Counted from the stretch's first letter, positions 14,507 through 31,336 are shown. The stretch: DNA of 64,000 nucleotides from an uncultured marine group III euryarchaeote (GCA_902627615.1 CACOJW010000005.1:32774-96773); one strand, 5' to 3'. The notes: a model not told the origin generated them from the letters alone. Made by a program: numbers and translations.

Positions 14507-15199
14507 TTAATTCGTCACAGCACTATCTAATGAAGACGTGTGGTTAGGGCTCTCTTTGCCTGGCTCAAAATAAGAAATCATGCAACTATCATCAACTTTA
14601 AAAATTAAAGTATCTCTATCATTAAAATTTATTGATAGACTCAAAAGCAATTCATTAAAGCCCTCTAATTGATGCGAAACTATATCCTTACTCTTTAGGT
14701 TATTGTATTTTTTTCTAAGAGCTTCTATAGCCATTGGTATTTCGGTAGTTGACTCAATAATATCAACGATTTCAGTATAAGCTTTACCATAAGGATTATG
14801 CGTAGTTGATTTTCTTTTATCAAAAAAATATTCGGGAGGTTTCAAAAATATCTTTAAAGATAATAGTTTCTTATTGATATGCTTAAATCTATCCTCACAA
14901 AATTTATTTAAAAATGACATTTCTAATATTTTAATATTAGTTTCAGTGGCCTTGTACCATTTAACAAAATTCGAATGATTTTTCTGATTTTTATTAATAA
15001 AGGAATCTTTCATTTTCTTTTCTTTTTCCCACACCGGAGCATTAGCTGAATAATACCAAATTATTCCAATAAAAATTGAAAGAAAGAAAAATATAGCAAA
15101 ATACTCAATGATTATGGTTACAATCCAGTATAATATAGCTACTATGAAGATACCAAGCCAAAAAAAAGCAGTTACTGCGTCATCACTATTACTAGACAT
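14507..15199 (-). CDS. Hypothetical membrane protein (2 N-terminal TM helices plus a soluble domain)
   Basis: Hydrophobic 'FFWLGIFIVAILYWIVTIIIEYFAIFFFLSIFIGIIWYY'. It lies 9 nt downstream of the preceding gene. No recognisable motif. Confidence 0.5.
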   Translation of the reverse strand: MSSNSDDAVTAFFWLGIFIVAILYWIVTIIIEYFAIFFFLSIFIGIIWYYSANAPVWEKEKKMKDSFINKNQKNHSNFVKWYKATETNIKILEMSFLNKFCEDRFKHINKKLLSLKIFLKPPEYFFDKRKSTTHNPYGKAYTEIVDIIESTTEIPMAIEALRKKYNNLKSKDIVSHQLEGFNELLLSLSINFNDRDTLIFKVDDSCMISYFEPGKESPNHTSSLDSAVTN

Positions 15200-15208
15200 A
15201 ACTCGTAT

Positions 15209-15979
15209 CTATGATAACAGCTCCTTTTTTAAATTTTCGAATTCTGCTCCATTTATTTCTCCATTATTTCGCATCTTAATCAGCCTTTCTAACTGTTCAA
15301 CTTTCGAATATGGTCCGCTCTCTAGATCTAAGGATATTTTGGAATCACTTTCGGTCGATATACCTACCTGAAGTTTTTTTTGCTTCTCATCTTCTACTCT
15401 TTTTTTTAACTGAGCTTCCGCAAATTGATTTTCTATACCTTCCTTTGATTGGAGATAGGCTATTTTTTCACAATATGCCCTTAACCCTTTAGTGGCATTT
15501 TTAGAATATTGTCTTTTTGTATATTCTTTTATATCTTTTTCTGTTACTAATCTATTTTTCAAAAACCAAGTTTTTTGGTTATGAGACCAACGGAAACCGA
15601 ATTTTTTTAGATGATTTCTAACGCTAGCCATATCTCCAGGGTATGCACACCTGATATAGGTGTCATTACCAACGTGCTTTATCTCCAATTCAACTTGCCG
15701 AGGCATACCGCCTTGATCGTAAACACCAAACAACCAGCGCCATCTTACAGCATCCGCTGAATCATCTAGTTGTTCCGTCCAATAGTTTTCTTCATCTTTC
15801 AACAACCTAAGCAACTTATCTTGAAGTGTAGTATCATTAAGATACATTTCTCCTATCTCAGATTCAACATAGGAACGTATCTCTGAGTAACGGGATGGAT
15901 TACCAAAATCAATTCCGTCACCGCGTATGCTATTGCTGTTTCCCCAGAAGCCCATAGTAAATGAGGGGTGCCGAACCAC
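15209..15979 (-). CDS. Hypothetical protein with C-terminal SHOCT-like tail
   Basis: C-terminus 'VEQLERLIKMRNNGEINGAEFENLKKELLS' fits the SHOCT short C-terminal domain pattern. The start is GTG at 15979 or ATG at 15955. Confidence 0.5.
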   Translation of the reverse strand: MVRHPSFTMGFWGNSNSIRGDGIDFGNPSRYSEIRSYVESEIGEMYLNDTTLQDKLLRLLKDEENYWTEQLDDSADAVRWRWLFGVYDQGGMPRQVELEIKHVGNDTYIRCAYPGDMASVRNHLKKFGFRWSHNQKTWFLKNRLVTEKDIKEYTKRQYSKNATKGLRAYCEKIAYLQSKEGIENQFAEAQLKKRVEDEKQKKLQVGISTESDSKISLDLESGPYSKVEQLERLIKMRNNGEINGAEFENLKKELLS

Positions 15980-16092
15980 TCCCGTTCAGACACCCTTTGT
16001 TATAGTTTTGGTAATGCTTTACCACCATCATTTTCCCGAAGGAATCATTTGGAGTGCATCATTGCCATACTGTAGCACTTATAAAAGAATAT

Positions 16093-17385
16093 TTACACCC
16101 TTATTTCTGCATGAATTATTTTGAATTGGGCAGAACCATGAATCAGCGGATATTTAACTAAAGGCACCTCATGTCTTATCAAAAATAAAATATGCCCTGC
16201 GCTAACATAATTTTTTACTCTTTCATCAGGTGATTTAATCAATTTGACAAAGTCTGCTGGTTTCTGGATTTCTTTCATTTCACTATTAACTAAAGGACCC
16301 ATTCTAAGAGAAACTCTGCCGAATTTTCCTAATTGCGTAGCTGAATTACTGCCAGTATAATCCAAAATTTTTTGATATCTGTTCCTCTGCACTGTCTTCA
16401 AACTTATTGCTTGTATTTCATTTCCCGAACTAAAAAGATAGATGTCTGTAAGACGATATTTTGCGATTGCTTTTTCAAGCTTTCTAACTACCTTACTAAA
16501 TTTTTGATTCTTAAAAGATAGCAAAATTGCATGTCGCCCCTTAGTCCCTAAGACCGAACTTATTACATATGTTGAATACACAACTCGTTTTACTGGTTTA
16601 ATCTCAATTTTTTTAGAAAATATGGAAGGTAATGTTAAAAATTTAGGCCATGTAAACCTTGGAATGTTTACTGAATTTGGTAAACGAGGTATATCTGATA
16701 TCCAATTAATTACAGGTTGATTTATCTGGGACCGAGTCAGCAGAGTACAAGTATATCCTGTTTTTGAATTTATAGTACCAGGTAATCGTATTATTCTTCT
16801 AGTATCGACAGTTACAGATGAATCGATTGTTATCCCTTGTTCCTTTATTTTATCTACCAACTCTCTTCTGACCTTAATTATTTCCATTTCTCTCTCAAAT
16901 GGATCTGCAATTGAAACACTTTTCTCATCTTCATATATTACATGAAATCCCTTACTGCCGCTGAAAGCTATATACTTCAATGAATAGCCAGTTTTATCCA
17001 TAAAATCAATTAATCTTTTACAATCCTTACGAGTCTTTTCTAGATTTCTAATAGATAGAGGCTCTCTATCTAAATCAAAAGCAATATCATTATTCAAAAC
17101 AATACCTGATTTTGTAAAAATAGTTCTTTCTTTGCCACGGGGCCCTAATGTTGTAGGATTTAGATAGGTTGATGTAGAGTAATACACGTCTCTAGGACTT
17201 AGATTAACTAACTTCTTTTTCATATCCTCTGTATCATATATACGATCTTTAATTTTTAAGAATTTATTTGATGATGAAATAATTCGAAAATGCCTTTTAG
17301 AGCAGTCTGTTAAAAACGATAAATCAATTGTGTTATTAGAATAAAACCTACTGAAAATATTTTCTTCACTATTTCTATTAACCAT
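16093..17385 (-). CDS. Archaeo-eukaryotic primase catalytic subunit-like protein (PriS-like) with about 170-aa C-terminal extension
   Basis: AEP motifs I 'IAFDLDRE', II 'IAFSGSKGFHVIYED' and III 'SVTVDTRRIIRLPGTINSKTGY', plus the PriS-like N-terminus 'SPRDVYYSTSTYLNP'. Confidence 0.65.
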   Translation of the reverse strand: MVNRNSEENIFSRFYSNNTIDLSFLTDCSKRHFRIISSSNKFLKIKDRIYDTEDMKKKLVNLSPRDVYYSTSTYLNPTTLGPRGKERTIFTKSGIVLNNDIAFDLDREPLSIRNLEKTRKDCKRLIDFMDKTGYSLKYIAFSGSKGFHVIYEDEKSVSIADPFEREMEIIKVRRELVDKIKEQGITIDSSVTVDTRRIIRLPGTINSKTGYTCTLLTRSQINQPVINWISDIPRLPNSVNIPRFTWPKFLTLPSIFSKKIEIKPVKRVVYSTYVISSVLGTKGRHAILLSFKNQKFSKVVRKLEKAIAKYRLTDIYLFSSGNEIQAISLKTVQRNRYQKILDYTGSNSATQLGKFGRVSLRMGPLVNSEMKEIQKPADFVKLIKSPDERVKNYVSAGHILFLIRHEVPLVKYPLIHGSAQFKIIHAEIRV

Positions 17386-18220
17386 TTTTAATATTAAAAT
17401 AGGAACTCAATTCTTCATTAAGCTCCTCTGTCATAATTTCTAAACCTGTGCAATCTACTTTCTTTCTTTTCAGTTCAGATAAGCGTAAGACAAATATATC
17501 TTTTACAGCTTTTATATGATTCATCTGAACACGAACTACATCGCCTTTTCTCTTAAGATTATTGTAAATAGCAATTGCTTGGACAAAGCCATTTTCAGCC
17601 TCCCATTTAGATGCAGTCCTCATTTCTCTTGATTCAAAATCCCATATTTCTCCAAAATTAGCTATTGGTGCCCTATCAAAGGAGCTCGCGGATCGAGACA
17701 TTGCTCCATCGTAACTAGGCTCGCCACGTTGCCCTAATGTTCGCGTCATATCATATAGATAAATTAGTATTCCTAAACCCCATAAAATACAACAAATAAC
17801 ACAAACCAAAAGACGATTACTATTGTAGCCTATATCATGATGCCTCTTTAGAGATACTACACAAAAAGGGTAAAGTAATAAAATCCAAACAAGAAGAAAT
17901 TGGTGAAGGATTGGGTTTGTATACTCAATATAATCTGCATCACAATTTATAACGGCACTATTGCTCTCCCAGTTACTTTGCCAATAATCTGAAGTACCTG
18001 TACATCTTTCCATAAAATCGTCATAGTATGAAGATGATGAGACTGTATACAATTTCCAAAAATAATAATACCAGATAAGAGTTATGTATAACCAAAACCA
18101 AAACCAAGTTCGAACATTAATTCTCCCATTTGGTGAAAAATAAATATATAGAACATAAGATCTTGGATTTGTTACTGAACGAGGATCCCACCAACTAGAT
18201 AGTTGCCACCACTTGCTCAA
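17378..18220 (-). CDS. DUF805-like membrane protein with C-terminal helical extension
   Basis: 'NGRINVRTWFWFWL', 'LKRHHDIGYNSN' and 'GQRGEPSYDG' fit the DUF805 pattern (GRIxR...RRLHDxG...G.N.YG). 8-nt overlap with the primase-like gene. Confidence 0.55.
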   Translation of the reverse strand: MSKWWQLSSWWDPRSVTNPRSYVLYIYFSPNGRINVRTWFWFWLYITLIWYYYFWKLYTVSSSSYYDDFMERCTGTSDYWQSNWESNSAVINCDADYIEYTNPILHQFLLVWILLLYPFCVVSLKRHHDIGYNSNRLLVCVICCILWGLGILIYLYDMTRTLGQRGEPSYDGAMSRSASSFDRAPIANFGEIWDFESREMRTASKWEAENGFVQAIAIYNNLKRKGDVVRVQMNHIKAVKDIFVLRLSELKRKKVDCTGLEIMTEELNEELSSYFNIKNG

Positions 18221-18244
18221 AATAAACCCCCCCTAAAAAGTAAT

Positions 18245-18961
18245 TCAAACATTAAAACTATTAAGCTCCAACCTCAAAACTTCTAGATTAGAATAAAGAT
18301 CCTCACAAGTAATACCTTTGTCAGCCATTCTTTCAGATTGCTTTTCTAAACTATTTAAAAGAAAAATTAAATGATTTCTCTTAGCTAACTTAGCTCTTTT
18401 TTTATCTTTTAATATTTCGTATTTTTTAATTGCTGTAAAATAATCATTTCTCTCTAAACTGAATATTGCTTCCCTCTGTAGTTTTTCCCTTCTATCTTTA
18501 AAGTTGTAAATATTAGGAACTGGACCATGCTCATTAGTATGTGGCTCACCTTTTTTGAAACTACAATATAATCCTAAAGCTAAAAATCCTATAAAATAAA
18601 GTATGCTACTTACAAAACTAAAAAATATTATTACTCCAGAAGAATCTTGATCATGACCTATATCTTTCAATCTTTTATAAGAAAGGGCAAAAAAAGGGAA
18701 AAAAGATAAAAAAACCGTTAAATAAAAGAATGAATAAAAAATAAAATAGTAAAAATTAAACCCTAATAAAATATAAAACACTAAATCGAGAAATAAAATG
18801 GCAAATAAATTAATTAAAGAAATTGCTACTATTGATAAAGCATGCGAAACCACCCCTCTGCGAAAATCTGAAGGTCCTATTCTCCCTTTCCAAGAATAAA
18901 GCAAATAGTTATTGTAACTCCATGCTGAATCAACATTCCTAGGTTCAATAAATTCAAACAT
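18245..18961 (-). CDS. DUF805-like membrane protein with C-terminal helical extension (paralogue of 17378..18220)
   Basis: 'KGRIGPSDFRRGV', 'YKRLKDIGHDQDSSG', 'KKGEPHTNEHGP'. The C-terminal tail is alignable with that of its neighbour ('AI..Y..LK.K....NH'). Confidence 0.55.
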   Translation of the reverse strand: MFEFIEPRNVDSAWSYNNYLLYSWKGRIGPSDFRRGVVSHALSIVAISLINLFAILFLDLVFYILLGFNFYYFIFYSFFYLTVFLSFFPFFALSYKRLKDIGHDQDSSGVIIFFSFVSSILYFIGFLALGLYCSFKKGEPHTNEHGPVPNIYNFKDRREKLQREAIFSLERNDYFTAIKKYEILKDKKRAKLAKRNHLIFLLNSLEKQSERMADKGITCEDLYSNLEVLRLELNSFNV

Positions 18962-18970
18962 AAAGACTAC

Positions 18971-21496
18971 TTATTTGCCTGTCTGACTTTTATGAATTAT
19001 ACTGTCTTCGACGTTTGCGCTACCATCACTACCAATATTAGATTTACTAATAACTGAATCCTGTATATTGATCACATTATGAGTAGGCTCGGCACCTTCC
19101 AACCTAGACAATATTGAAGCTGCAACAGGTGCATCTCTGTGTTTAGAGGCCACCTCTCTAACCATTTCTATATCAACCTCCATATCTTTCAAATCGCTTA
19201 ATCTAAAGTTAGAAGTTAAGGTATCACACAGCTCAAGGAAAGAATTCTTTTCCCTCACAGGACTTTTGTTATATCTTTTCTTAATAGCTTCCCATGCATC
19301 ATCAATAGCATCTTTTTTCAATGTTTCAAACAAACCAGTATCTTCGAATTCCTTACGAATTTCCTGAATGTCTGACCTAAATGGATTGGCTGCACCCTGT
19401 CCCTGAAGTATATCTACCCAAGTATCGTGCGGAAATCTAACCAAACTTCCTTGACCTGATAAATAATCAACAGAACGATTGAACGTTCTCCTATCGTAAA
19501 CATCATCAAATTTTTCTTCCATTGGTTCATCAATTTCATCGGCAAATGCTCTCAGTAACTGCTCGTGACATCTCCTCTCTTCAACGTGATTTGCTAAGAA
19601 AATCAAACAACTCAATGTGTGCAAGCCTCCCGTTCTATATTCATTGCCAACCTTTAAGAGTCTTTGAAGAATCATAGTTACATATCCTGCCATTCCCTTC
19701 TGAGCATTTTCCTTCAGATAAGTTTGACTTAAACGTCGTACATCACTGTACACCATCTCTTTAATCAATGAACCCACATATATTGGACTTCCCTGCGCAT
19801 ATGAAACCAAGGTTTTAACTGCTTTAGTGTCAAACAATATTGTGTTCACATCTAAAGTTTTTAAAATTAAAGATTCCATTTCGTCATCGCTGAATCTTGG
19901 AACAGTTAAGCGTGTAAATTTCTTCCTAAAATCAACTGGCAATTCTGACCATTCAGCCTCTCTAGATGACAAAATTAAGCCACTCATTTTTTCTTTAGAT
20001 GCGATTACATTATACAAATCTGGTTTTTCGGAAATATCATCATAAAATAATCTAATCTTAAATTGCTCGTGAGCATTACCGATATTTTCATTAGTTATTA
20101 TTCCAACTGGTTCTCTCTCCATTAATTTATCAAAAATCTCGAACAAAAGAACAGTCTTACCAACACCTGGTTCTCCAATTATAACAAAATTATCTTCAAA
20201 GGAAGATTCAACAATATCTCTTACTATTTCCTTCCTTTTTGAATCCAGGTGTACATTTCCTCTAAGGTTTTTAGGAAGTGCCCAATCTTCCATGATAATT
20301 TTTGGATCTGTTGGAACTTCGAAGTATGACGAAATGGCATACTTATCTCTATTATTGTGTAAAAAATCTAAAATTACTTTGTTATTAGGATAGGCCATAT
20401 AAGATTCCCACCTTTTTGAAAAGAATTCTCCAACAATTGATTCTTCTTCAGATAAGTCTGTTGGAATTTCCCATTCCGGTTTTAGCTTAATGGCTTCTTC
20501 CTTAGGAATTTCTTCCTTAACCTTCTTTTGAGATTTAGATGGTGTATTAACAACGCCTGGCCGTTGAATCTCAACCCATATTTGTTCGTCTACACTTGTT
20601 TCCGCACTATCATATGATCTAACGGCATCAACTGTGACCTTTACCGGTATATTTCCTGGAGTCGAAGGTATAAGTCCTACTACTATTTCCTCAGAATTAC
20701 CTGGCGCTATCTCCCCAGTAGATAAAGAACCTCCTGAACCTGCAGAATTGATGCCATCAATAATTAAACCAACTGATTTTGCCTTAGCCTTACCTTTATT
20801 TTGTAGTAAAACAATAGCTCTATTAGATTCTCCAGAAACTAAATCATCGGGTAATGTCACCTTGATATCTGGCCTCCAACTATTAAGTGAATTTTTAACA
20901 GACTTTATAGCAGATTCCGAAACTTCAATACAACTTTTTAATTTGCGTTTCTCTAACAATTGCTCTGCAGATTCTTCCTCTGGTACAAATTTTTCTATTA
21001 GTATGTGGTCTTTAGCTTCTATTATCAATTCATTCAACTGAGAAACTAACCCCTGTGCTTGCTCGTAATCCCCTAACTGTGAACGCATCGCTTCATTATC
21101 TGATGAAATTAAGTTGTTTGCTTTCTTAAATTTACCAGCCATCATCATCTCATTTATTTCCGATTTCAAGTCTTCAAAACTAGTATCGTGAACTAACTCA
21201 AATGTATCCATCATTTCGTATAAATTCTTCGTATCCATATAGGCAGTTTTACAATTTTCAAGCTCATTGCCAAGACTTGAACCCAGTTTACCTGCAGAAA
21301 TATAATCACCTGAATTGAATGCATCCTTTACTTCTGTAATTTGATTATCCGATAATTCAAAGCCAAAATCTATTAATTCATCTGACAAAACTCGAACCCT
21401 ATCGAGCTTCTCTTTCGAATCATCAAATTCGTTTTCTAATTTATCGGCCTCTGCAATGGCCTCATTTAATTTTGAAAGCAATGATTCGTAAGTCAT
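18971..21496 (-). CDS. STAND/NACHT-like P-loop NTPase with N-terminal coiled coil and a tentative CARDB-like beta-sandwich
   Basis: Walker A 'VIIGEPGVGKTVLLFE', Walker B 'IRLFYDDI', 'LILSSREAEW' (STAND 'TSR'-like position), helical C-terminal region. The tail carries two 'DS[VI]IxKSxxG' copies. Confidence 0.6.
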   Translation of the reverse strand: MTYESLLSKLNEAIAEADKLENEFDDSKEKLDRVRVLSDELIDFGFELSDNQITEVKDAFNSGDYISAGKLGSSLGNELENCKTAYMDTKNLYEMMDTFELVHDTSFEDLKSEINEMMMAGKFKKANNLISSDNEAMRSQLGDYEQAQGLVSQLNELIIEAKDHILIEKFVPEEESAEQLLEKRKLKSCIEVSESAIKSVKNSLNSWRPDIKVTLPDDLVSGESNRAIVLLQNKGKAKAKSVGLIIDGINSAGSGGSLSTGEIAPGNSEEIVVGLIPSTPGNIPVKVTVDAVRSYDSAETSVDEQIWVEIQRPGVVNTPSKSQKKVKEEIPKEEAIKLKPEWEIPTDLSEEESIVGEFFSKRWESYMAYPNNKVILDFLHNNRDKYAISSYFEVPTDPKIIMEDWALPKNLRGNVHLDSKRKEIVRDIVESSFEDNFVIIGEPGVGKTVLLFEIFDKLMEREPVGIITNENIGNAHEQFKIRLFYDDISEKPDLYNVIASKEKMSGLILSSREAEWSELPVDFRKKFTRLTVPRFSDDEMESLILKTLDVNTILFDTKAVKTLVSYAQGSPIYVGSLIKEMVYSDVRRLSQTYLKENAQKGMAGYVTMILQRLLKVGNEYRTGGLHTLSCLIFLANHVEERRCHEQLLRAFADEIDEPMEEKFDDVYDRRTFNRSVDYLSGQGSLVRFPHDTWVDILQGQGAANPFRSDIQEIRKEFEDTGLFETLKKDAIDDAWEAIKKRYNKSPVREKNSFLELCDTLTSNFRLSDLKDMEVDIEMVREVASKHRDAPVAASILSRLEGAEPTHNVINIQDSVISKSNIGSDGSANVEDSIIHKSQTGK

Positions 21497-21588
21497 AAAC
21501 TTAAATATTTAAACGGAATATAATATTTTGCCTTTGCTGTGCACTAAGCAACAATATAAAGACCAAGAGAAATTGGCTACTAAGATAA

Positions 21589-23811
21589 ATGTTAATCGGA
21601 ACTAATAGGGAAAATGAAGAATTAATAGAAATCGATAGCGGTATTTTGTCTAGACATGCTGCAATGCTGGGATCTACAGGGTCTGGCAAAACTGTGATGG
21701 CAAAAACTTTGATTGAAGAATGCACAATAGATGAAATACCAAGTTTAATCATAGACCCACAGGGAGATTTAGCACGACTATGCATCTATGCCTCCAATGA
21801 AGAAATTGATGAAAAAGGGGGAGACTCTGAAAGGGCTAAATTATTCCGAGAAAAGGCTGAAGTAAGATTGTGGACACCACTGCGTAAAAAGGGTATACCT
21901 TTATGCATTGATCCTTTCCAAATACCCTCTACTGAGTTAGATCAAGAGGAGGCTATAACTGCATGGGATATGGTCGCTGCTGGTTTTACTTCTTTAGCTG
22001 ACTACGATATGGAAAAACCTGCTGGAAAACAGGTTAGGACCTACCTTTATGAAATTTTAATTCATATGACTAAATTGGGTATTCAAGTAAATGATTTCGA
22101 ATCACTAGCAAAGGCTGTAAAGTCTCCTGAGAAAATTCTAGCTGAAAAATTATACCCAAACGAAAAAGAAAAACCAGGCTGGAACAAAATCTGTAAAGAT
22201 TACCAGATACCGGATTTGACAAGTATGCTTCCAAAGGCAACTTATGATGAATTAGCTAGAAGACTATCTGCATATTCATCGGGAATAAATCAACTGCTAT
22301 TCAATAATGGCGTACCTATTAACATAGAGACATTGTTGCAGCCCACTGAAAAAGGAAAAATACCAATTAATGTAGTATATCTAAATACAATTCAAAACGA
22401 ACCCCAAAAGCATTATTTCGTGCAAGAAATTTCGAGAGCACTCTACAGCTGGATGCTTGAACAAGAAAGCTCAAACAAGGAATTAAAGTTGCTTTTTTTT
22501 ATGGATGAAGTTGCACCTTATCTTCCCCCAGCTCCAAGAAATCCTCCTGCCAAAGATTTGATTAAATTAATTTTTAAGCAGGCTAGAAAATACGGTATTG
22601 CTGCAGTACTAGCAACACAAAATGCATCGGATGTCGATTACAAAATAATGGCACAGGCGAACACCAAATTTATTGGCCGTTTTTCTCAACCGCAAGACAT
22701 CGATAAAGTTAAACATCTGCTAAAAGAAAGTGGAGGAGATTTGGATATGATTAAAGAATTACCCAACTTAGGGCCGGGTCAATTCCAAATGGTTTCCCCC
22801 GACGTCTCTAAGGAAGCACTTCCTATACAATGCAGATGGTTATACACTGAGCATGGAGCTCCTTTAACAGAAGAACAAGTTGAAAGGAACACCAGTAATG
22901 AAATCCGAGAATGGGCGAGCTTAAAGGGTTCAAAAAATACAATAAAAAGAGATTCATATAAGGTTGCTAAAAAAGCTCTAGGATTTACTAAAAATCAAGA
23001 TACCAGTACACTTACTTCTTCACTAAACAAGGATAGTAATGAGGCTTTCGAAATCCGTCTAATGGGCGGATTATCTGTAATCAGAGACGGAAAAGACCCT
23101 CTCTACGTTATGCAAGGAATAACAAATGCCATGGCTACACTTGTCCTTTTATGGTCTATGATTGTTTTAGGTACACAGTGGAGAGATGGAATTCTTGAAT
23201 GGACATGGGCTCTATTAGGGTTACTTATCACCTCATCAGTTTTTCTGATAATAGTGCTAGAAACATTTCTTGGCCATGACATACAACTTCAGCAAAAAAT
23301 TTCCAAATTTGCTAGATTTAGCCAATATGGTTTATTCATATGGCTCTGGACTTTACTCTCTTGGGAATATTTCTACTCCGACTACACACTAGGTGATAAT
23401 CTTTCTATGATTTTAGAAATTTCAGTCGTTTGGACGACGATTTTCATTATGCTGGAAACAGTACATCGGCTCAAACTCGGTAGACTAAAATTAAATTTTG
23501 AAGGTGAAGGTATAGTTTCTAAATTAAAAGATGGAGTTGGTTCTTTAACTGCCATTTTAACAAAATCTGAAATAAGAAAAATGGAAACATCAAGTAGAGA
23601 GGCTATGACTGGATTGAGATGGCTACTTGATTTCTGCACCCTACTTGTCTTTTCTATAATCGTAATAGGAGATTTATTTGGAAAAAGATTAGATGAACTT
23701 TTTGGAGGAAGTGAAACACCATACTTGATTAAAATCGCTTTATGGATAGGATCTATTTATCTTTTAATTTTCATTTCACAAAGTATAGTACTAAGAAATA
23801 CCAGAGGATAA
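21589..23811 (+). CDS. HerA/VirB4/FtsK-superfamily (DUF87-like) ATPase fused to a C-terminal polytopic membrane domain
   Basis: Walker A 'MLGSTGSGKT' (21670-21693), 'LIIDPQGDL', Walker B 'LLFFMDEVAPYL', 'AAVLATQNASDVDYKI'. The last ~240 aa contain about 6 hydrophobic helices. Confidence 0.7.
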   Translation: MLIGTNRENEELIEIDSGILSRHAAMLGSTGSGKTVMAKTLIEECTIDEIPSLIIDPQGDLARLCIYASNEEIDEKGGDSERAKLFREKAEVRLWTPLRKKGIPLCIDPFQIPSTELDQEEAITAWDMVAAGFTSLADYDMEKPAGKQVRTYLYEILIHMTKLGIQVNDFESLAKAVKSPEKILAEKLYPNEKEKPGWNKICKDYQIPDLTSMLPKATYDELARRLSAYSSGINQLLFNNGVPINIETLLQPTEKGKIPINVVYLNTIQNEPQKHYFVQEISRALYSWMLEQESSNKELKLLFFMDEVAPYLPPAPRNPPAKDLIKLIFKQARKYGIAAVLATQNASDVDYKIMAQANTKFIGRFSQPQDIDKVKHLLKESGGDLDMIKELPNLGPGQFQMVSPDVSKEALPIQCRWLYTEHGAPLTEEQVERNTSNEIREWASLKGSKNTIKRDSYKVAKKALGFTKNQDTSTLTSSLNKDSNEAFEIRLMGGLSVIRDGKDPLYVMQGITNAMATLVLLWSMIVLGTQWRDGILEWTWALLGLLITSSVFLIIVLETFLGHDIQLQQKISKFARFSQYGLFIWLWTLLSWEYFYSDYTLGDNLSMILEISVVWTTIFIMLETVHRLKLGRLKLNFEGEGIVSKLKDGVGSLTAILTKSEIRKMETSSREAMTGLRWLLDFCTLLVFSIIVIGDLFGKRLDELFGGSETPYLIKIALWIGSIYLLIFISQSIVLRNTRG

Positions 23812-24112
23812 GTGTGTTCCACCTTTACTCCAATTTAATGTATAGTAGAACATTAGATAATATATTCTCTATAAATTAAAAATATAATATAATATATTTA
23901 CCATTAACTTTATATATAACGTGTAATAGTTTGTACTATGTTCGGATATCTCAAACTTGCGGTAATTTTCCTTCCTTGGGAACTTTGTGTCTTACCGCTT
24001 TTGGCTTATCTGTTCTAAAAATAAAGGAAAATAAAAATGATTATATTCACTATATTGAAAGGTACGGTATCTGTAGCGGAAAAAATAATTAAAGGCCTTA
24101 TGTTCTAGTAAC

Positions 24113-24415
24113 GTGCTAATTCAAGGCTATCAAACACTCGCCATCGGACTTACACTTGGCTTAAGCTTTTTGATATTTGGAATTGTATTTTGGGATAGTG
24201 CTACAGAAGACTACTACAACAAATTAAATGGAGAAACTTATGAGATTGACAGTTGCATACAATACATGGAACCTCCCTTAGGGTCAATAGGAGATCGAGA
24301 CAGCTGTGTACAAAAAAGACAGATTGGTGCTTCTTTTTTAATTCTTGGAACTATCAGTCTGTGGGTAACAATCTATTTTAATAAAAAATATCTCTATAAT
24401 TTGATGAAGAAATAA
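24113..24415 (+). CDS. Small 2-TM membrane protein
   Basis: GTG start. Two hydrophobic helices flank a ~45-aa loop with 2 Cys. No recognised motif. Confidence 0.4.
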   Translation: MLIQGYQTLAIGLTLGLSFLIFGIVFWDSATEDYYNKLNGETYEIDSCIQYMEPPLGSIGDRDSCVQKRQIGASFLILGTISLWVTIYFNKKYLYNLMKK

Positions 24416-24450
24416 TATATACAACATATATATTACAAATTTTATAGTAT

Positions 24451-24960
24451 ATGGTTGAATTAGTCACTGGAGTAACATTAGCCGCACGTGTGGCATTTTT
24501 TATAGCTAGCTACAGAGGGCATAAAGCTGAGAGTCATAAGGAAGATGATAGGGCAGTCAGAACCTGGATTATGGAGAGCCTGAATAATATAAGAGAGAAC
24601 GTAACTAACATTATGACAAGCGCATATAGAAATAATAAACCAAATTTAGAGCGTGACGCAAAAGATATAATAAGTGCAATTGATAATTTCAAAAATGAAG
24701 TAAACGTGGCCGTTACTGGAAATATTCAACCAAGATTATCTAAAAAGAGTTCTGCAGACTTAGAGAGCTTAGTTGAGTTCGATTTAAAAATTATAGAGGA
24801 ATTAAACAGTATTTCAAAAGAAAGCTTAATATCTTCTGAAAATAGCGATAGTAAACATTTATCTCCCCGAAATCTTTCTGGCATAAGAAAAGAATTAACT
24901 TCTTGTAGAAACTATTTCAGGGAAAGAACTAAATTCATTGGAGGAATAAAAAATGTCTAA
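24451..24960 (+). CDS. Hypothetical protein (N-terminal hydrophobic helix)
   Basis: ORF with AT-rich TATA-like elements just upstream. 8-nt overlap with the next gene suggests translational coupling. Confidence 0.5.
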   Translation: MVELVTGVTLAARVAFFIASYRGHKAESHKEDDRAVRTWIMESLNNIRENVTNIMTSAYRNNKPNLERDAKDIISAIDNFKNEVNVAVTGNIQPRLSKKSSADLESLVEFDLKIIEELNSISKESLISSENSDSKHLSPRNLSGIRKELTSCRNYFRERTKFIGGIKNV

Positions 24961-26236
24961 AATGGAACATTGGCGAGAAGACCCTGAGGAAGAACTAGCA
25001 TGCGTTGTTGAAAGAGGCGAATTATCTACTTTCTGGAATAACAGTATAGATTTAGTAATAGGGCCTGGAGAAAGTCTTGTTTGGATAAAAGATGGAAAAA
25101 TAGAAGACGTTGTAACTCAATCAAGACTTAACAACATTGGAGGAGGATTCAAGAACTGGCTAGCCACTAAAGTTATTAGTGGGCAAGATGTGAAAATGCT
25201 TATTGTTGATAATAAGCCATTTAAAATAAAAATAGGTGCTGAAGGAAATACTTCAGACAATGTAAAACAGGCAGGAACTGCTACATTAACACTGAGATTA
25301 AACCATGAACAGGCAAATCGAATAGCTGGAGTATTAAAAGAGAAAGCAATCAAAGTTACAAAAGGATTTTTCAGAAAAAGAGAGGTAATTAAAGGATATG
25401 AAACAAAATTACTTAGAAGTGACATTGAGCAAATGTTTGCTGAAGAGGCAAATGCAAAAGTTTTCGGACCTACAATCAAGGGATTTAGTGCTGCCGAATT
25501 TGGAAGCAGTGATGTCAGTTCACGTATAGAAAGTTCCGCACAAATAGAATTACGAAATACTCTAGACTTATGGGGTATGTCTTTAGAAAATATTTATGTT
25601 ACGTGGGGATCCAATGAATATCAAAACTGGATGGCAACGCGAGCTCCTACCCTATGGGGAAAATTCGCAAAAAGAGAAGATAAAATCCAAGATGAAAAAT
25701 GGAAAGATGAAGATTGGGAAAGAGAAAGGGAAAGAAAAAGACGTAGAAGACGTGCAGACTTTGAAGATGACATGGATGATGAAGACTATGAATTCGAACT
25801 TGAAGCACGTAGACGTAAAAGAGAAAAACGTAGAAAAGAGTGGGATAAAGAAGATAGGAAAGATGAGAGAGACGATGAAATTGACGAAACAGTACACTCT
25901 GAGGATATTACAGACTTAAAAAGCACTAGAAAAAGAGACAGAGATAAGAAAGATGAAGAGCAAAGGCTTCAGCTAGAGAAAAAGGAATGGGAGCAAGATA
26001 AAGAAGAATTGTCTGATTTAATGGACTTGAAAGACCGTATGCATGAAAAGAAGATGGAAGAAAAGCGTCTCAATCAAGAAGGTGAACAAAAACTGGCCCA
26101 AATAAAAGCTGATGCAGATAAAAGAAAATATGACATGGATGCCTATGAAAAAGGCGCAGATAAATCCGATAAAAGAACAAAAGATATTCTGAATGCAAGT
26201 TCTGGAAAAAATAGTTCCACAAAAGAAAATGACTAA
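24953..26236 (+). CDS. SPFH/Band-7-like protein (tentative) with long K/E/R/D-rich tail
   Basis: The N-terminal ~230 aa ('LVIGPGESLVWIKDGKIEDVV...MLIVDNKPFKIKIG...') resemble the Band_7_1-type SPFH layout. The C-terminal ~190 aa are almost entirely charged ('ERERERKRRRRRADFEDDMDDEDYE'). Confidence 0.4.
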   Translation: MSKMEHWREDPEEELACVVERGELSTFWNNSIDLVIGPGESLVWIKDGKIEDVVTQSRLNNIGGGFKNWLATKVISGQDVKMLIVDNKPFKIKIGAEGNTSDNVKQAGTATLTLRLNHEQANRIAGVLKEKAIKVTKGFFRKREVIKGYETKLLRSDIEQMFAEEANAKVFGPTIKGFSAAEFGSSDVSSRIESSAQIELRNTLDLWGMSLENIYVTWGSNEYQNWMATRAPTLWGKFAKREDKIQDEKWKDEDWERERERKRRRRRADFEDDMDDEDYEFELEARRRKREKRRKEWDKEDRKDERDDEIDETVHSEDITDLKSTRKRDRDKKDEEQRLQLEKKEWEQDKEELSDLMDLKDRMHEKKMEEKRLNQEGEQKLAQIKADADKRKYDMDAYEKGADKSDKRTKDILNASSGKNSSTKEND

Positions 26237-26280
26237 ATTATTATAGAAATGCCTTAATATTGTGACATATTTAGATTACT

Positions 26281-26835
26281 ATGTTTGGAAGGAGATTTGG
26301 TGCCAGATTTAACAATCGCGGTTTTAGGCCAAATTTTTCAGGTAATGAATATGAATCTAAATTTTCACCTTCAAATTGGAAACCATACCACCACTTTATG
26401 TTTGTTTATGTAGCTTTTAGAGATTTAAAGTATATGGAAAAAGGAAATGTACGTCATGGGCAAATTATGGAGTCCGATGAATTTAAGATAGAAACAAGCA
26501 AGGTCACTAACGCGGCCATGGGTTGGTTTCCAGAAATAGTACTTGGAATGAATGAAGAGATATCTGTAGAAGAATTTTCGGAACAATATCAGAAAGTTAT
26601 AGAATATTCCATGAATACCTTTCATAACGGAGAAAATACTGATGATTTTTTCTCTCAATTCGAATACTCATTGAAAAATATCAAGACCTATCTAAAAGGA
26701 TTAAAGGATAAACTTGAGCTAGTGTTAGAGGATTTGTGGGATATAGCTACTGTTGATAATGAACTAGAAAATAGAGAGAGAGAGATGTTTATTTTATGCT
26801 CTAATATATTTGAGATTCCAATTAATTTGGAATAG
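26281..26835 (+). CDS. Hypothetical protein with TerB-like C-terminal helix pair (tentative)
   Basis: 'LEDLWDIATVDNELENREREMFILCSNIFEIP' resembles the TerB 'aDG/D..l...E...l' repeat. Weak, motif-level only. Confidence 0.35.
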   Translation: MFGRRFGARFNNRGFRPNFSGNEYESKFSPSNWKPYHHFMFVYVAFRDLKYMEKGNVRHGQIMESDEFKIETSKVTNAAMGWFPEIVLGMNEEISVEEFSEQYQKVIEYSMNTFHNGENTDDFFSQFEYSLKNIKTYLKGLKDKLELVLEDLWDIATVDNELENREREMFILCSNIFEIPINLE

Positions 26836-27804
26836 TTAAATTTCACTTCTGTTTATTACTGAATCTCTTATCTCTACCTTTTTCGCAACGTAGTCTCCAC
26901 TTACATTAATATTTGTAGTTGGTTTTTGACGAATTCTCTTGAATTCAGTTTTATGCTGTTTTGTTGCTCTGAAAGTTCTGACATTTATTAATTCAGGCCT
27001 TATAAGGTCAATAACCGAATAACTACTACTATGCATAATAATAGAATCATCAGATATTTGTTGAATAGCCAGCCCTTCTTTTTGTTCAAGAATCATTGTA
27101 TAACAATCTTTTTCAGGTGAGGAAGGTATAACTCCCAGATAATCTTTTACTCCTATTTTCAAGTTTAAATGATCCTCATTAGCAGGAACATAAAAACCGT
27201 TCACTTGGTGCAGCAAGCATTCCTCTCCCGCATGCTCAGTTCCCTGTAATCTTCTATCAATTTCTTCCTGTTTTTCTAATGATTCATTTTGGAATCTATT
27301 CATAACTTTGTGATTCTTTTCATATTTTGAATAAAAATTATCAATATTTAGATTTTTGAAATGTACTCTGCTGTTAAGTTTTAACTCTGCTCCGTTGACT
27401 TCCTCAATTTCCAGACTGTGCTCGTATACATTCGAACTGTCAAAGGCAATGATGCATTTATTACCAAACCAATCCCATTTTTTCAAAGTTCTAGAAGAAA
27501 TAACATCGTAATCATTGCCCATGCCTTCATAACCAAAAGATGAGAACAAGTCTCCATAATTTATCTCTGGATTATAAGGGACAAAAGTTTTCTCTTCATA
27601 AGTGCATTCATGCACTACAGACGTTCCTACCCATTTTCCCTCAATGCTTTTAGAAATTATTCCTAGCTCTGCCTGTTTAATAGGGTTTGAGTATGAAAAA
27701 TTTGGATGCCTTATTCTTAAATTGTCAGCACCATATTCCCTGTATTCGCCCTTGCCACTTTTTGGTTTTTTAGGGGATTTAGGTGGCATTTTGAATGTTT
27801 TCAT
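26836..27804 (-). CDS. Hypothetical protein ending in the 'DSVINRSEI' tail
   Basis: Basic N-terminus 'MPPKSPKKPKSGKG', no TM. C-terminus 'KKVEIRDSVINRSEI*'. It lies 9 nt downstream of the channel gene. Confidence 0.55.
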   Translation of the reverse strand: MKTFKMPPKSPKKPKSGKGEYREYGADNLRIRHPNFSYSNPIKQAELGIISKSIEGKWVGTSVVHECTYEEKTFVPYNPEINYGDLFSSFGYEGMGNDYDVISSRTLKKWDWFGNKCIIAFDSSNVYEHSLEIEEVNGAELKLNSRVHFKNLNIDNFYSKYEKNHKVMNRFQNESLEKQEEIDRRLQGTEHAGEECLLHQVNGFYVPANEDHLNLKIGVKDYLGVIPSSPEKDCYTMILEQKEGLAIQQISDDSIIMHSSSYSVIDLIRPELINVRTFRATKQHKTEFKRIRQKPTTNINVSGDYVAKKVEIRDSVINRSEI

Positions 27805-27813
27805 TTTTCCAAC

Positions 27814-29007
27814 TTATTTCCTCAGTTCATCCAATATTTCTCTTTGATTTTTCTCCAACTCATGTAACCTATTTTCTAAATTCTGCTGCATTATATTAAG
27901 CTCTTCATTTTCTTCCCCAGTCATGACTGTTGTTAGTGTTGCTGTAAATACACCTGCAAGAATCATGCCAGTAATTACTAAGAATACTGTCAAAATTCTC
28001 CCTAACTCCGTTTGAGGATTATAAATATCTCCAAAACCACCAGTTACTACTGTAGTAAAACTCCACCACATACTTTCAGCAAGAGTACCAACACTGGGAT
28101 CGCTATCGCCTTCCTTATATGTTATGACGAACGCTCCGAGAACTATGACTAATATAACACCTTTGAAAGACTTCTTCATCAATTTGACGTCCATTATATC
28201 TGCAAATTTATCAAACCCTTTCCAGAAAAAGAATACAATCCTTACAACACGAAGCAGTCTCACAAGGCGGAAAAGTCTAGCTAACCTCAATGTACGGCCG
28301 TATCGTAAAGCCCCTCCATCTGGTATCGGTATTGAAGTTAGTAAATCAATCCAATTGTTTCTGATAAACCACCTTTTATTTTCTGCAAAGGTATATCTAA
28401 GATAAAATTCCATCAAAAATATTATACAAAAACAAAAGTCAATCCAAAAAATATCTTGTTTTAATTCAGCGTCAGCGATTGGATCTAGATATAACATATC
28501 GTAAGAAATAACTGATATTATCAAGACAATCATGACCATAATTGTCCCTTCTAATATATTTGCAGATTTTTGGCTACCTAAATATTTGGAAACACCTTCC
28601 CGCACGATTTTTTCTTGTCTAGCATCATAAATTTTAACTCGATATTCTTCTAAATCTTCATGTATTTTAGAATATTTACGACATTCTTTCCTTGCCTCAT
28701 CATAAAATGAAGCATTTCCCTTGACGAGATTTTTATGAAGTTTAACTTCCAATTTTACCAGTTCTTTTTTTATCTTTTTTTGCTCTTTTGTAATATCATC
28801 GTGCATGTTCTGCAACATGTCAGATGGCAGATTTACTATCCTCACATTTTCAACTCTGTTTAGTAAACTCTGAAAATCTAAATGTTCTGCATCGGGCTCA
28901 CTAGGATTAACTAGTCTATCATCTAACTTATTTTCATCTGCATCTTTTAAAGCCACGTAATTTACTATGCAATCAGTTATATTAATTAATTTCTTTTTGC
29001 ACTGCAC
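27814..29007 (-). CDS. Voltage-gated (6TM, Kv-like) potassium channel with N- and C-terminal coiled coils
   Basis: S4 voltage sensor 'RTLRLARLFRLVRLLRVVRIV'. Pore/selectivity filter 'WWSFTTVVTGGFGDI' fits TxxTxG[YF]GD. Confidence 0.8.
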   Translation of the reverse strand: MQCKKKLINITDCIVNYVALKDADENKLDDRLVNPSEPDAEHLDFQSLLNRVENVRIVNLPSDMLQNMHDDITKEQKKIKKELVKLEVKLHKNLVKGNASFYDEARKECRKYSKIHEDLEEYRVKIYDARQEKIVREGVSKYLGSQKSANILEGTIMVMIVLIISVISYDMLYLDPIADAELKQDIFWIDFCFCIIFLMEFYLRYTFAENKRWFIRNNWIDLLTSIPIPDGGALRYGRTLRLARLFRLVRLLRVVRIVFFFWKGFDKFADIMDVKLMKKSFKGVILVIVLGAFVITYKEGDSDPSVGTLAESMWWSFTTVVTGGFGDIYNPQTELGRILTVFLVITGMILAGVFTATLTTVMTGEENEELNIMQQNLENRLHELEKNQREILDELRK

Positions 29008-29053
29008 TGAAAAATTATATATACTCCTAAAATATATAGCAAGTAGTGATAAA

Positions 29054-29515
29054 ATGGCATGGAATCAATTTTGTGATATGAACTATATGTTTGTTTTTCT
29101 TTCAAATTATGGAGATGAAGAAACAACTAATGATGAAATCTATGAGATGAGCTCTAAATTATTAGATCTCACTTATGAAAAAGATAGGGATGGCGACGGA
29201 ATAGTGGACAGCTCATTAACCGATGACGAGCGCGATTCAGTAATTGAACAGTCTTGGCAAAAATATGGAGGTCTCGATCAAGATGGAAGAGCTTCTCAAT
29301 TTTTCACTTCAGCCAGGAAAGTAGCCGAATACTTCCAATACAGTCACAATAAAATGCAATCATTTGTTAATGGCATGGTTGATATAGCATCTGCAGATGG
29401 ATACATAGACGGAACTGAAGAAGAAATAATAAACTCATTAGCCGATGCTTGGGGATGCAATGGTGTTCAAATTTCGTACAATGCTGGAATTCCCGTATTC
29501 CTTTTCGTCTGGTAA
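29054..29515 (+). CDS. TerB-like protein (tentative)
   Basis: 'NGMVDIASADGYIDGTEEEIINSLADAWG' fits the TerB 'A.aDG.i...E...l' motif. I use ATG 29054 rather than the tracked 28967 start, which would overlap the divergent channel gene. Confidence 0.45.
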   Translation: MAWNQFCDMNYMFVFLSNYGDEETTNDEIYEMSSKLLDLTYEKDRDGDGIVDSSLTDDERDSVIEQSWQKYGGLDQDGRASQFFTSARKVAEYFQYSHNKMQSFVNGMVDIASADGYIDGTEEEIINSLADAWGCNGVQISYNAGIPVFLFVW

Positions 29516-29540
29516 AAAAGACTGAAAATTAAGGTGAATT

Positions 29541-30410
29541 ATGAGTAACAGTACTTTTGCAGGTAAATCTACTGAAGACACTATTCGCAACTATGCTGAG
29601 ATGCTCATTGATGATTTGAATGCTAACCTTCCTGAAAATGCTGGAAAACACTGGGATAAAGCTAGAGAGCTTGATAATCAAACCGCCAAGGAGATTTTTG
29701 GTACTGAATACAGCGATAGGATAGGTCAAGCATATCACAATTGTTTAATTAATTACAAATTTGATGAAATGGCTACGGCTTGGAAAGTATTAGAGGGAGT
29801 TCCCGTAGTTCTAGGCGGAATTGGTACGGGGGCACAACCAACAGTCAATCCTCAATACGTTACACTAGTAGATCAAATAGATTCTAAATATAATGAAATT
29901 AAGGGACTTGTGTTTGCAGCAACTAGTATATGTCCACAGAGTGCTGATTTGCATGGTGCTGCAGCTTGGATTGGAGTTTTGCATTTAGCAGCCGGAACTT
30001 TACCACCTGAAATTAATAGGATAAAGGATGAGAAATACAATAGATTAAAACCTGATATTGATAATCATATCAGGCAAGCCCTTGCACAGAATCCAAGCCA
30101 CAAACAGGCTTTGGAAGCAAAGGAAAGACTAAAAGAAGTAGACGAACACGAATTTAAAATTCCTGGTGGAGATTGCTTCATAGCAACAGCTGCTTATGGC
30201 ACTCCATTTGCCGATGAGATAGATATTCTTAGAAACTGGAGAGATAATTTCTTACAAGCATCTTATGCAGGACGTGCATTCATTAAAACTTATTATTCAT
30301 TAAGTCCTCCCGTAGCTGATAATATCCGACAATCTGGAGGAAAAAGAAAAATTGTTAGAACAACTTTAGGGCCAATTGTCAAAATCTTAAAAGATAAATA
30401 TTCTAACTAA
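29541..30410 (+). CDS. Protein with C-terminal 'CFIATAAYG' box domain
   Basis: 'GGDCFIATAAYGTPFADEIDILRNWRDNFL...YYSLSPPVADNI' matches a recurrent C-terminal module of archaeal and bacterial proteins. I recall it being named a CFI-box; the name is uncertain. Confidence 0.5.
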   Translation: MSNSTFAGKSTEDTIRNYAEMLIDDLNANLPENAGKHWDKARELDNQTAKEIFGTEYSDRIGQAYHNCLINYKFDEMATAWKVLEGVPVVLGGIGTGAQPTVNPQYVTLVDQIDSKYNEIKGLVFAATSICPQSADLHGAAAWIGVLHLAAGTLPPEINRIKDEKYNRLKPDIDNHIRQALAQNPSHKQALEAKERLKEVDEHEFKIPGGDCFIATAAYGTPFADEIDILRNWRDNFLQASYAGRAFIKTYYSLSPPVADNIRQSGGKRKIVRTTLGPIVKILKDKYSN

Positions 30411-30457
30411 TTGTTTATTACCAAAATATCTTAAATAACACAGGGCAGTAGATAATC

Positions 30458-31336
30458 ATGAATACTGGTGCTAAGATTGTAATTGGTTTAGGAATTCTAA
30501 TTATAATTATAGGAATTATACTTTTGACAACAACGGGAGATGATTTTGATGAAGATGTTGAAGAAGGGATAGTTTACGAAGGAGCAGATGGAAAAACTAA
30601 AGTTGAAAATGTAGAACCAAATACTGGATCTAAGTACTGGGTTCATCTTGTTGACGCAGAATTTGAAGGTGGTGGTGGTGGTGGATACAATGAGGCTCAC
30701 GGCAATAGTACATGGAACTTAACTCAATCTGATTGTAATCTTGTTAAGTCATTTACACTGAAAGATAGTGATGATAATCAAATTTTCTACCCACAATGTA
30801 ATTACATTGAAGATAGTACCGAAGACAAATATATCGTCATTGGCCGCCTGTGCAATACTCCAGTCTACGACCGCTATGGGTGGGAAGTAGCAAATGAAGG
30901 TGAAGGCTGTAGAGAAGGTACATACACTTGGGACACTGATGGAAACAAAGTCATGGTCTATGATGTAGAGGCAATTTTTGGCGCTATAATTGACATAATA
31001 ATGCAAGCATTGGGGTCTTTCGGAGCTTGTTGCTGTGGTTCAGTTATTTTAATCATCGGAATAATAATGGCTGCAACAATGGAAGATAACAATGCTAATC
31101 CATATGCTCAACAAACAACTACTAACACCGGACAAACTCCACAAGCTTCTAGTGGTTGGGACGAAAAAGAGGACTATATTAGAAAAGAAGTAAACCAAAC
31201 TATCAACATAAATGACAGTGTGATAAACAAAAGTAATCTTGGAAGTGATGAAGAAATACCTGACAAAAGTGAAATGGCTGTTACTGAAGAAGAAGACGGC
31301 AAAAGTGAACACAAGGGATTCGCCCCACCACCTTGA
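30458..31336 (+). CDS. Cys-rich bitopic/2-TM membrane protein with 'DSVINKSNLG' in the C-terminal tail
   Basis: N-terminal TM 'IVIGLGILIIIIGIILL', Cys-containing ectodomain, second TM 'GACCCGSVILIIGIIMAA', tail 'TININDSVINKSNLGSDEE'. Confidence 0.55.
   Translation: MNTGAKIVIGLGILIIIIGIILLTTTGDDFDEDVEEGIVYEGADGKTKVENVEPNTGSKYWVHLVDAEFEGGGGGGYNEAHGNSTWNLTQSDCNLVKSFTLKDSDDNQIFYPQCNYIEDSTEDKYIVIGRLCNTPVYDRYGWEVANEGEGCREGTYTWDTDGNKVMVYDVEAIFGAIIDIIMQALGSFGACCCGSVILIIGIIMAATMEDNNANPYAQQTTTNTGQTPQASSGWDEKEDYIRKEVNQTININDSVINKSNLGSDEEIPDKSEMAVTEEEDGKSEHKGFAPPP

Follow-up and report, generated by a model that had tools for sequence, protein, structure and literature searches.

A short DSV-centred peptide on unrelated proteins of a marine archaeal island is a portable module of Marine Group II/III Thermoplasmatota

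Three otherwise unrelated proteins encoded in one genomic island of an uncultured marine group III (MGIII) euryarchaeote carry the same short peptide, centred on the residues DSV. The island lies in a stretch of 64,000 nucleotides (GCA_902627615.1, CACOJW010000005.1:32774-96773), which is referred to below as the window. We report that this peptide is a portable module, widespread in Marine Group II/III Thermoplasmatota; acidic variants with zinc ribbons are found elsewhere. As far as could be found, it is previously undescribed, and it is of a familiar kind, that of small promiscuous modules such as SHOCT. We tentatively favour, at somewhat under an even chance, a function as a cytoplasmic beta-strand association tag that would join its carriers in a common sub-membrane assembly. 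Positions in the motif are counted from the D of DSV, taken as position 0; L-numbers denote retrieved loci and P-numbers retrieved proteins.

The pattern DS[VI][IV].[KR]S.[ILVT] has exactly four matches in a six-frame translation of all 64 kilobases (kb), all of them in the open reading frames (ORFs) of three proteins of 841, 322 and 292 amino acids (aa), at 9 to 40 residues from the stop codon. An earlier note, made from this DNA alone, had described the shared peptide and named background frequency as the observation that would count against it. Four copies were observed in the window, where 0.005 are expected by chance from 2000 within-ORF shuffles of the long ORFs, none of which gave at least two matches. 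Credible similarity among the three carriers is confined to their tails in pairwise BLASTP comparisons (13 of 19 residues are identical between the 841- and 292-aa proteins), in agreement with the claim that the proteins are otherwise unrelated, and the four copies lie where that note had placed them. Codon choice differs between the copies (the first Ser, for example, is encoded by TCA or by AGT), so the conservation is at the peptide level and does not reflect a DNA repeat, as had also been proposed. Its ORFs and copies were correct, except that the range given for the 322-aa protein (26839-26877) covers only the last 13 residues. The motif is non-random and under purifying selection at the peptide level.

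The largest carrier is an 841-aa P-loop NTPase (18971-21496, minus strand) whose translation ends NVINIQDSVISKSNIGSDGSANVEDSIIHKSQTGK immediately before the stop codon. This tail holds two copies of the motif: copy 1, INIQDSVISKSNIG (19031-19072, minus strand), and copy 2, ANVEDSIIHKSQTG (18977-19018, minus strand), 18 residues downstream. The protein consists of an N-terminal helical region, a CARDB-like beta-sandwich (about residues 209-291), the P-loop NTPase domain, with the Walker A sequence GEPGVGKT at residues 441-448, a further helical region and the tail, and it is devoid of hydrophobic segments. Nine metagenomic orthologues, with 64-99% identity, were found. Copy 1 is strongly constrained in them: VINIQDSVI and the IG are invariant in 9/9, variation occurs only at positions +4 to +7, with one Ser-to-Ala change at +6, and the pairwise codon differences over its 16 codons amount to 316 synonymous versus 98 nonsynonymous. 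The motif is, in fact, the best-conserved block of this family. Copy 2, by contrast, is variable: the orthologues of L001, L002, L003, L008 and L009 keep it, whereas in L004 it is changed to DG, in L006 it is degenerate, and L005 and L007 lack it.

The second carrier, a beta-rich protein of 322 aa (26836-27804, minus strand), ends KKVEIRDSVINRSEI before its stop codon. An extended form of the motif, GDYVAKKVEIRDSVINRSEI (26839-26898, minus strand), occupies its extreme C-terminus, with the stop following directly. The best-conserved block of this family, traced in homologues down to 28% identity, reads TTNINVSGDY[VI]xKKVxI[RK]DSVINRSxI; in P0007, the most distant homologue, the block runs on as GSDGKSK and is followed by a SHOCT domain. 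Scans of the 322-aa protein with Pfam, NCBIfam, PADLOC and PHROG gave no hit, and a Foldseek search of PDB with its model gave TM-scores below 0.3. It has no hydrophobic segment, and its location is probably cytoplasmic. In the AlphaFold model, the beta-rich core has predicted local distance difference test (pLDDT) values of 70-90, while residues 294-322 fall below 50.

The third carrier is a Cys-rich, CCC-motif membrane protein of 292 aa (30458-31336, plus strand), with two hydrophobic segments at about residues 1-31 and 170-210 and an ACCCG block inside the second. Its motif stretch, TININDSVINKSNLGSDEE (31199-31255), lies in the tail that follows the second hydrophobic segment, with the D at 40 residues from the stop; by topology, this tail would face the cytoplasm. 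The motif arrived within an 18-residue insertion, VNQTININDSVINKSNLG (31190-31243, plus strand), that is missing in the closer orthologues of L003 and L008 (by alignment) and L018 (by sequence), and a motif scan found no match in the distant homologue of L010. Conservation among orthologues, on which the earlier note's proposal depended, is thus pronounced in the 841- and 322-aa families, where the motif is the best-conserved block, and fails in the 292-aa family. The 292-aa homologue adjoins the DAO, tm100 and MtN3 genes in L018 and L003, as a chromosomal neighbour and not a fixed part of the island.

Taken together, 125 distinct instances define a core of about 14 residues, [TIV]x[IV]xDSV[IVL][NS][RK]Sx[IVL]G. 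A Gly/Ser-rich linker usually comes next, and GDYVxxxD often stands in front; with the GDYV extension the length is about 28 residues. Conservation extends to positions outside the search pattern: -2 is I or V in 100% of these instances and +9 is G in 85%. A profile built from 21 instances, used in a word-indexed search that returned only proteins of <80 aa and hence a biased sample, retrieved 83 further proteins, mostly of 60-77 residues. These small carriers read VDQTVVHGDYVDDRDTIVKDSV[VI]x[RK]SN[IV]GxGG and then continue into SHOCT; their source names, where given, are MGIII euryarchaeote, Euryarchaeota or Thermoplasmatota. An exhaustive search with a 22-position profile yielded 18 hits at E<1e-3, the short motif having little statistical power, and 11 of the 18 are repeat proteins, including beta-helix and LRR look-alikes. 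Among the carriers from this search are acidic proteins with two to three tandem DDSVVNRSxVG units and C-terminal zinc ribbons (the source of one calls it stomatin/prohibitin family), proteins in which two motif units precede a TerB-like region, and small proteins with a C-terminal motif. The earlier note's statement that similar strings occur in other archaeal proteins was correct.

A strict back-translated pattern, searched in one genome per species across 185,579 species, returned nine loci only, for about two chance hits predicted by a rough calculation with uniform base frequencies. Seven of the nine belong to MGIII, Thermoplasmata or Thalassarchaeaceae, and the eighth, from an unclassified uncultured archaeon, has the same cassette (described below). 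A concatemer of the four window copies, used in a word-indexed search with a strict prefilter, retrieved one orthologue fragment only. No model in Pfam or NCBIfam covers the motif, and literature searches with DSVVNRS-type strings found no description of it. Two other interpretations were discarded. A viral origin was dropped as motif carriers could not be confirmed in the viral contigs of IMG/VR, and an N-glycosylation sequon (NxS, +4 to +6) was rejected because only 67% of the instances have Asn at +4 and the carriers appear to be cytoplasmic.

The commonest setting of the motif is a constant C-terminal cassette, composed of an AIxIWExLGxxEEAxRVRK helical hairpin, the motif, a Gly-rich linker and SHOCT. 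Cassette genes form tandem arrays in MGIII and Thalassarchaeaceae genomes, with four genes in L015 and five in L019, and the N-terminal parts of their products vary, being transmembrane, PH/GRAM-like (weak Pfam hits below cut-off) or unassigned. We took a census of architectures over 41 distinct carrier ORFs in the loci examined. In 18 of them the motif immediately precedes SHOCT, at 46-48 residues from the stop (at 63 in one partial ORF); 18 others, 10 of which are NTPase orthologues, have a C-terminal tail with the motif and no SHOCT; two carry it at the N-terminus; and three have it internally or elsewhere, two of which have a SHOCT-type end missed by the pattern. The N-terminal cases are a protein of L008 (4727-5980) and one of L014; the former, a 417-aa membrane protein, begins MAKGKKVIITDSVVNRSNL. 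A scan for SHOCT (PF09851) matched only downstream of the motif, at residues 38-65 of a cassette construct, and did not match any of the three window carriers. The peptide is not a strictly C-terminal tag: SHOCT usually comes after it, it is sometimes N-terminal, and it can occur in two to three tandem copies.

Within islands, the NTPase is always tagged, while its motif-bearing companions change between island variants. For instance, a 255-aa protein of L003 and L008 carries NIRDSLPSKSNIG, and its orthologue in the window is without the motif. The motif is modular, and is gained and lost. The window, L008 and L012 each contain three carriers, and L010 contains two; carrier genes often reside in islands beside a tyrosine integrase.

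The association with SHOCT raises the question of whether the motif has a function of its own, or is a linker or leftover of a SHOCT cassette spread by domain shuffling, with the window copies as fragments. The fixed spacing of 46-48 residues to the stop, ahead of SHOCT, in 18 of the 41 carrier ORFs and the existence of the 322-aa family both with and without SHOCT (P0007) would fit such an origin. Nonetheless, we consider it very unlikely: two families retain the motif under purifying selection in the absence of SHOCT, its conservation exceeds that of the carrier proteins, it was inserted alone in the 292-aa tail, and it occurs in tandem copies without SHOCT.

Some observations on neighbouring segments are recorded here. 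A second shared module is found in both DUF805 proteins and in other island membrane proteins, which end with an AIxxY/WxxL helix followed by L..L[KR]xKG[IV]xCxxL..L. Its sites are at 17378-18220, 18245-18961 and 14507-15199 in the window (all minus strand) and, elsewhere, at 221-1003 in L003 and at 241-1443, 1534-2307 and 4727-5980 in L008. The AIxIWExLGxxEEAxRVRK hairpin that precedes the DSV motif and SHOCT in the MGIII arrays is related to this second module. SAP-like LKxILxxxGLS segments are present on membrane proteins beside motif genes, namely in the L008 protein with the N-terminal motif (4727-5980) and at 393-950 in L019. In L010, the protein encoded at 8066-8794 has an N-terminal zinc ribbon and then a degenerate motif, NISDNVISNSNV, an arrangement that echoes the acidic proteins P0017 and P0023.

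As to structure, a small motif-plus-SHOCT protein was modelled by AlphaFold with a 41-sequence alignment. The SHOCT helices reached pLDDT values of 79-89, and the motif, which adopted no secondary structure, remained below about 50. Conservation combined with predicted disorder in the monomer is characteristic of segments that acquire structure when they bind a partner. In 125 instances, 68% of the residues of the motif region are S, V, D, I, G or N, with L (1.6%), P (1%) and A depleted; K and R together contribute 12%, with conservation at +5. For beta-helical and amyloid-signalling motifs, Dyrka et al. describe an excess of N, V, G and I and a shortage of P and L. The beta-helix and LRR look-alikes of the exhaustive profile search likewise speak for a propensity to beta pairing. 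When written in hexads (INIQDS/VISKSN/IGSDGS/ANVEDS/IIHKSQ), the NTPase tail places an aliphatic residue at every sixth position, in two 18-residue turns. The DSVISKS core of copy 1 is identical in six of seven positions to residues 101-DSVISLS-107 of SOD1, a chance resemblance (E about 0.1-1) and not homology. The SOD1 peptide forms steric-zipper fibrils (PMC8675042), and the likeness would bear only on the physical propensity of the sequence.

An exposed and disordered segment, often terminal, would also suit a degradation or processing tag, that is, a degron or a cleavage site for a protease or unfoldase. We regard this as highly improbable: protease or unfoldase genes do not recur beside the carriers, and an internal site ahead of a folded SHOCT, as well as tandem copies, would be unusual for a degron.

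We favour, tentatively, the association tag, because the contexts of the motif (SHOCT, zinc ribbons, transmembrane segments, weakly PH-like domains and a stomatin-named protein) converge with its composition, its predicted disorder and the membrane prediction for SHOCT, SHOCT-like domains having been predicted to place disparate domains at the inner membrane leaflet (PMC11237479). The selection on the motif, its modular use and the clustering of carrier genes also count in favour. The motif, predicted to be unstructured when alone and borne by putatively cytoplasmic proteins or by membrane-protein tails, would form a strand that pairs through a beta-sheet with other copies, with a common hub, or with both, and through this pairing the carriers would gather in a single assembly on the inner side of the membrane. 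In the window, the carriers so assembled would be the P-loop NTPase, with its two copies, the beta-rich 322-aa protein and the Cys-rich membrane protein, and the best candidate for the hub would be the p169/p427 pair (see below). We infer the binding mode, the identity of the partner, the cytoplasmic topology and the sub-membrane location.

Several points weigh against the association tag. The structure models are of monomers only, and the interaction itself is putative. The strictly conserved D0, [RK]5 and S6, together with the free carboxyl group after +8 in the 322-aa family, would also suit a receptor domain, and the L003/L008 variant DSLPSKSNIG puts a proline inside the putative strand. 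Carriers are single in the flanks examined of L013, L024-27 and L028, so clustering is not obligatory, and single carriers are also known in housekeeping surroundings. The membrane-anchoring role of SHOCT is itself a prediction, and oligomerisation of SHOCT was not found in the original SHOCT paper. Finally, the sampling is biased (proteins of <80 aa only) and the short profile is weak (18 hits at E<1e-3).

A minor possibility, to which the conserved polar residues also speak, is that the motif is the ligand of one dedicated receptor, for which the p169/p427 gene pair (24451-26236, plus strand) is the best candidate. p169 (24451-24960, plus strand) encodes a protein with an N-terminal hydrophobic segment, apparently a helix; p427 (24953-26236, plus strand) encodes a conserved 240-aa N-domain followed by about 190 residues rich in K, E, R and D. 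The motif would dock by beta-augmentation on the N-domain of p427, whose charged tail would scaffold the carriers, while p169 would anchor the complex in the membrane. The two genes overlap by 8 nucleotides, which suggests co-translation, and homologues of both adjoin motif genes in the window, in L003 and L008, in L012 and in the MGIII array L015, with p427 alone in L011. The free C-terminus of the 322-aa protein would also fit a receptor pocket. Against this, the window, L003 and L008 are orthologous islands, which leaves only about three to four independent contexts, and the pair was not seen in the flanks examined of the five-gene array L019, L013, L024-27 and L028. Furthermore, p427 matches no known peptide-binding family: a Pfam scan assigned neither protein to a family, and a PDB sequence search with p427 was uninformative. 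The island copy at 11860-14310 of L012, in a 141-kb contig, looks decayed, with its p427 homologue broken up into three ORFs and two of its cassette genes frameshifted or truncated.

The composition of the motif and the double copy on the NTPase also bring to mind amyloid-like signalling motifs of the HET-s/HRAM, BASS or RHIM type, an interpretation that we judge unlikely. Oligomers of the activated NTPase would stack the two pseudo-repeats, spaced by 18 residues, as a beta-arch template, which would convert the single-copy motif on effectors, such as the 292-aa or the 322-aa protein, and thereby activate them. The island does combine single-copy partners with an NTPase whose two pseudo-repeats are connected by a G/S/D loop, the composition bias is as reported for such motifs, the motif is disordered in monomer models, and its core is close to a proven steric-zipper peptide. 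In addition, the rarer Lys at +5 is common to the NTPase and two partners (the 292-aa protein of the window and the 255-aa protein of L003/L008). However, this shared Lys is expected by chance about 8% of the time, and it was the only sign of closer matching within than between islands, which was not significant.

In described NLR-associated amyloid systems, the NLR has the motif at its N-terminus and the product of the adjacent gene, an effector, has it at its C-terminus; the receptors combine a NACHT or NB-ARC domain with TPR/WD/LRR repeats, and the motifs are about 20-25 residues long, rich in Q/N/G/V/I and poor in K/P/L. Here, the NTPase bears the motif C-terminally and not N-terminally; the partners are encoded 5.3 and 9 kb away, with other genes between; the core has 14 residues, and Lys/Arg are conserved rather than depleted; and the majority of carriers are small SHOCT proteins that lack a neighbouring NTPase. 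Neither is the NTPase demonstrably of the NACHT/NB-ARC type, nor does it have a repeat sensor domain. Every Pfam hit for the 841-aa protein is below the gathering cut-off, with bit scores of 17.7 for NACHT (cut-off 26.7), 15.2 for NB-ARC (23.5) and 20.5 for nSTAND3 (27.2). These STAND-type hits cover only about 25-60 residues around Walker A, and Pfam and PDB profile scans showed no repeat domain of the TPR/WD/LRR type. Its PADLOC matches are to the P-loop region only, and a PDB profile search likewise matched the P-loop only and was uninformative beyond it. The earlier note's designation of the protein as an NTPase was borne out, and its STAND-family hits are all below the curated cut-offs. 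A prion-like beta-arch motif acting in signalling or templated co-assembly outside the NLR layout, by which the NTPase would template effectors and dozens of SHOCT-cassette proteins per genome would join in one cross-beta network, is a similarly slim prospect.

The earlier note itself had proposed a docking, sorting or degradation tag, possibly read by a neighbouring ATPase. On this view, the motif would be a docking, sorting or translocation signal recognised either by the NTPase or by the HerA/FtsK-type ATPase encoded divergently from it (21589-23811, plus strand; Pfam DUF87/HerA_C, PADLOC HerA). Type IV coupling proteins read C-terminal signals, and by analogy the HerA-like protein might do the same: it gives weak hits to TrwB/coupling proteins, and its C-terminal part is a multi-pass membrane domain whose hydrophobic segments fall between residues 510 and 736. 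It is always paired with the motif-bearing NTPase (L001-L004 and L008), and three carriers are encoded within 12 kb. This idea is weakened, however, because the motif is widespread in loci where no such ATPase gene was found: the loci retrieved via the motif or the 322-aa family (L010-L029) gave no HerA or NTPase homologue. Moreover, the motif is frequently found within the protein, in front of SHOCT, or at its N-terminus, and the tag on the 292-aa protein is lineage-specific. We hold a reading by these ATPases to be distinctly unlikely. Nor is the tag private to the island or its ATPases, most carriers being in MGII/MGIII with no HerA/NTPase homologue in the flanks examined. What survives of that proposal is its general class, a shared interaction or tagging function being the most reasonable one, without the specificity for the island ATPases. 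A HerA query of GTDB genomes gave no close relative.

The island (14507-31336) is situated between a DAO-like gene and the CCC292/DsrE/MtN3 genes. In the Thalassarchaeaceae genome L018, the DAO, tm100, CCC292 and MtN3 genes are contiguous (5272-7999), an arrangement that looks like an empty site. A primase-polymerase-like gene (16093-17385, minus strand) is grouped with the NTPase and the HerA/FtsK-type ATPase (18971-23811). This arrangement is the same in L003 and L008, and also in L001 and L004 to the extent that their contigs cover it, which suggests that the three genes are the backbone of a plasmid-like or integrated element. Gene order otherwise differs between the window and L003. Related islands contain a tyrosine integrase (L010, 3757-4695; L012, 8428-9366; L024, 4219-5157), and none was seen in the window copy. 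No PADLOC defence system was matched; the only hits were generic ones to HerA and P-loop-local ones to Nhi, AbiO and MkoA, and the 292-aa, p169 and p427 proteins, like the 322-aa protein, matched nothing.

The 322-aa gene is tail-to-tail with p184 (26281-26835, plus strand). In relatives, its homologues are always in this arrangement with a p184 homologue, near a homologue of p289 (29541-30410, plus strand; its C-terminal block reads CFIATAAYGTP), a tyrosine integrase, or both. The p289 homologue is near the 322-aa homologue in L010, L011 and L024-27. Inside integrase-linked islands, the 322-aa, p184 and p289 genes make up a small module that is conserved.

Archaea of Marine Group II/III are abundant and uncultured, and annotation is lacking for most of their proteins; a module shared by many otherwise unrelated proteins, and by the products of entire tandem arrays, offers a handle on which of these proteins act together, and it can be converted into a profile for domain databases. 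If cross-beta templating were true, amyloid signalling would reach unicellular archaea and non-NLR NTPases, and the reported link of such motifs to multicellularity would be challenged.

The motif can be set beside four kinds of known system. Encapsulin cargo-loading peptides and C-terminal type IV secretion signals use one short terminal peptide to address proteins of different folds. The motif likewise is one short peptide on different folds, but it is not confined to termini and is spread well beyond one operon. Among the island proteins scanned with Pfam and PHROGs, which did not include every small ORF, no encapsulin or capsid (HK97-fold shell) or secretion-channel family was hit. With the Hexapep left-handed beta-helix, the NTPase tail shares an aliphatic residue every six positions, and a hexapeptide-repeat type protein of the window (55477-56643, minus strand) holds ILDSIVMKNCEIG, around 55738-55764, the only near-match outside the island. 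Unlike Hexapep and other solenoids, the motif comes in one to three units only, with no long solenoid, and AlphaFold predicts it to be disordered; four tail constructs gave no hit to Pfam Hexapep at E up to 10. With the amyloid signalling motifs (HET-s/HRAM, BASS1-10 and RHIM) it has in common a short, G/N/V/I-rich and beta-prone sequence, which occurs both on an NTPase and on other proteins encoded in its locus, and pseudo-repeats with a flexible loop between them, whereas it departs from the NLR amyloid systems in three defining features, namely motif position, NLR architecture and adjacent gene pairs. SHOCT (PF09851) differs from it in structure, being a two-helix unit where the motif is beta-prone and predicted to be disordered, and the motif is a separate element, upstream across a Gly-rich linker and found also without SHOCT. 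At the same time, SHOCT resembles the motif in its lack of an assigned function and in being short, portable and present on many unrelated domains, mostly near the C-terminus.

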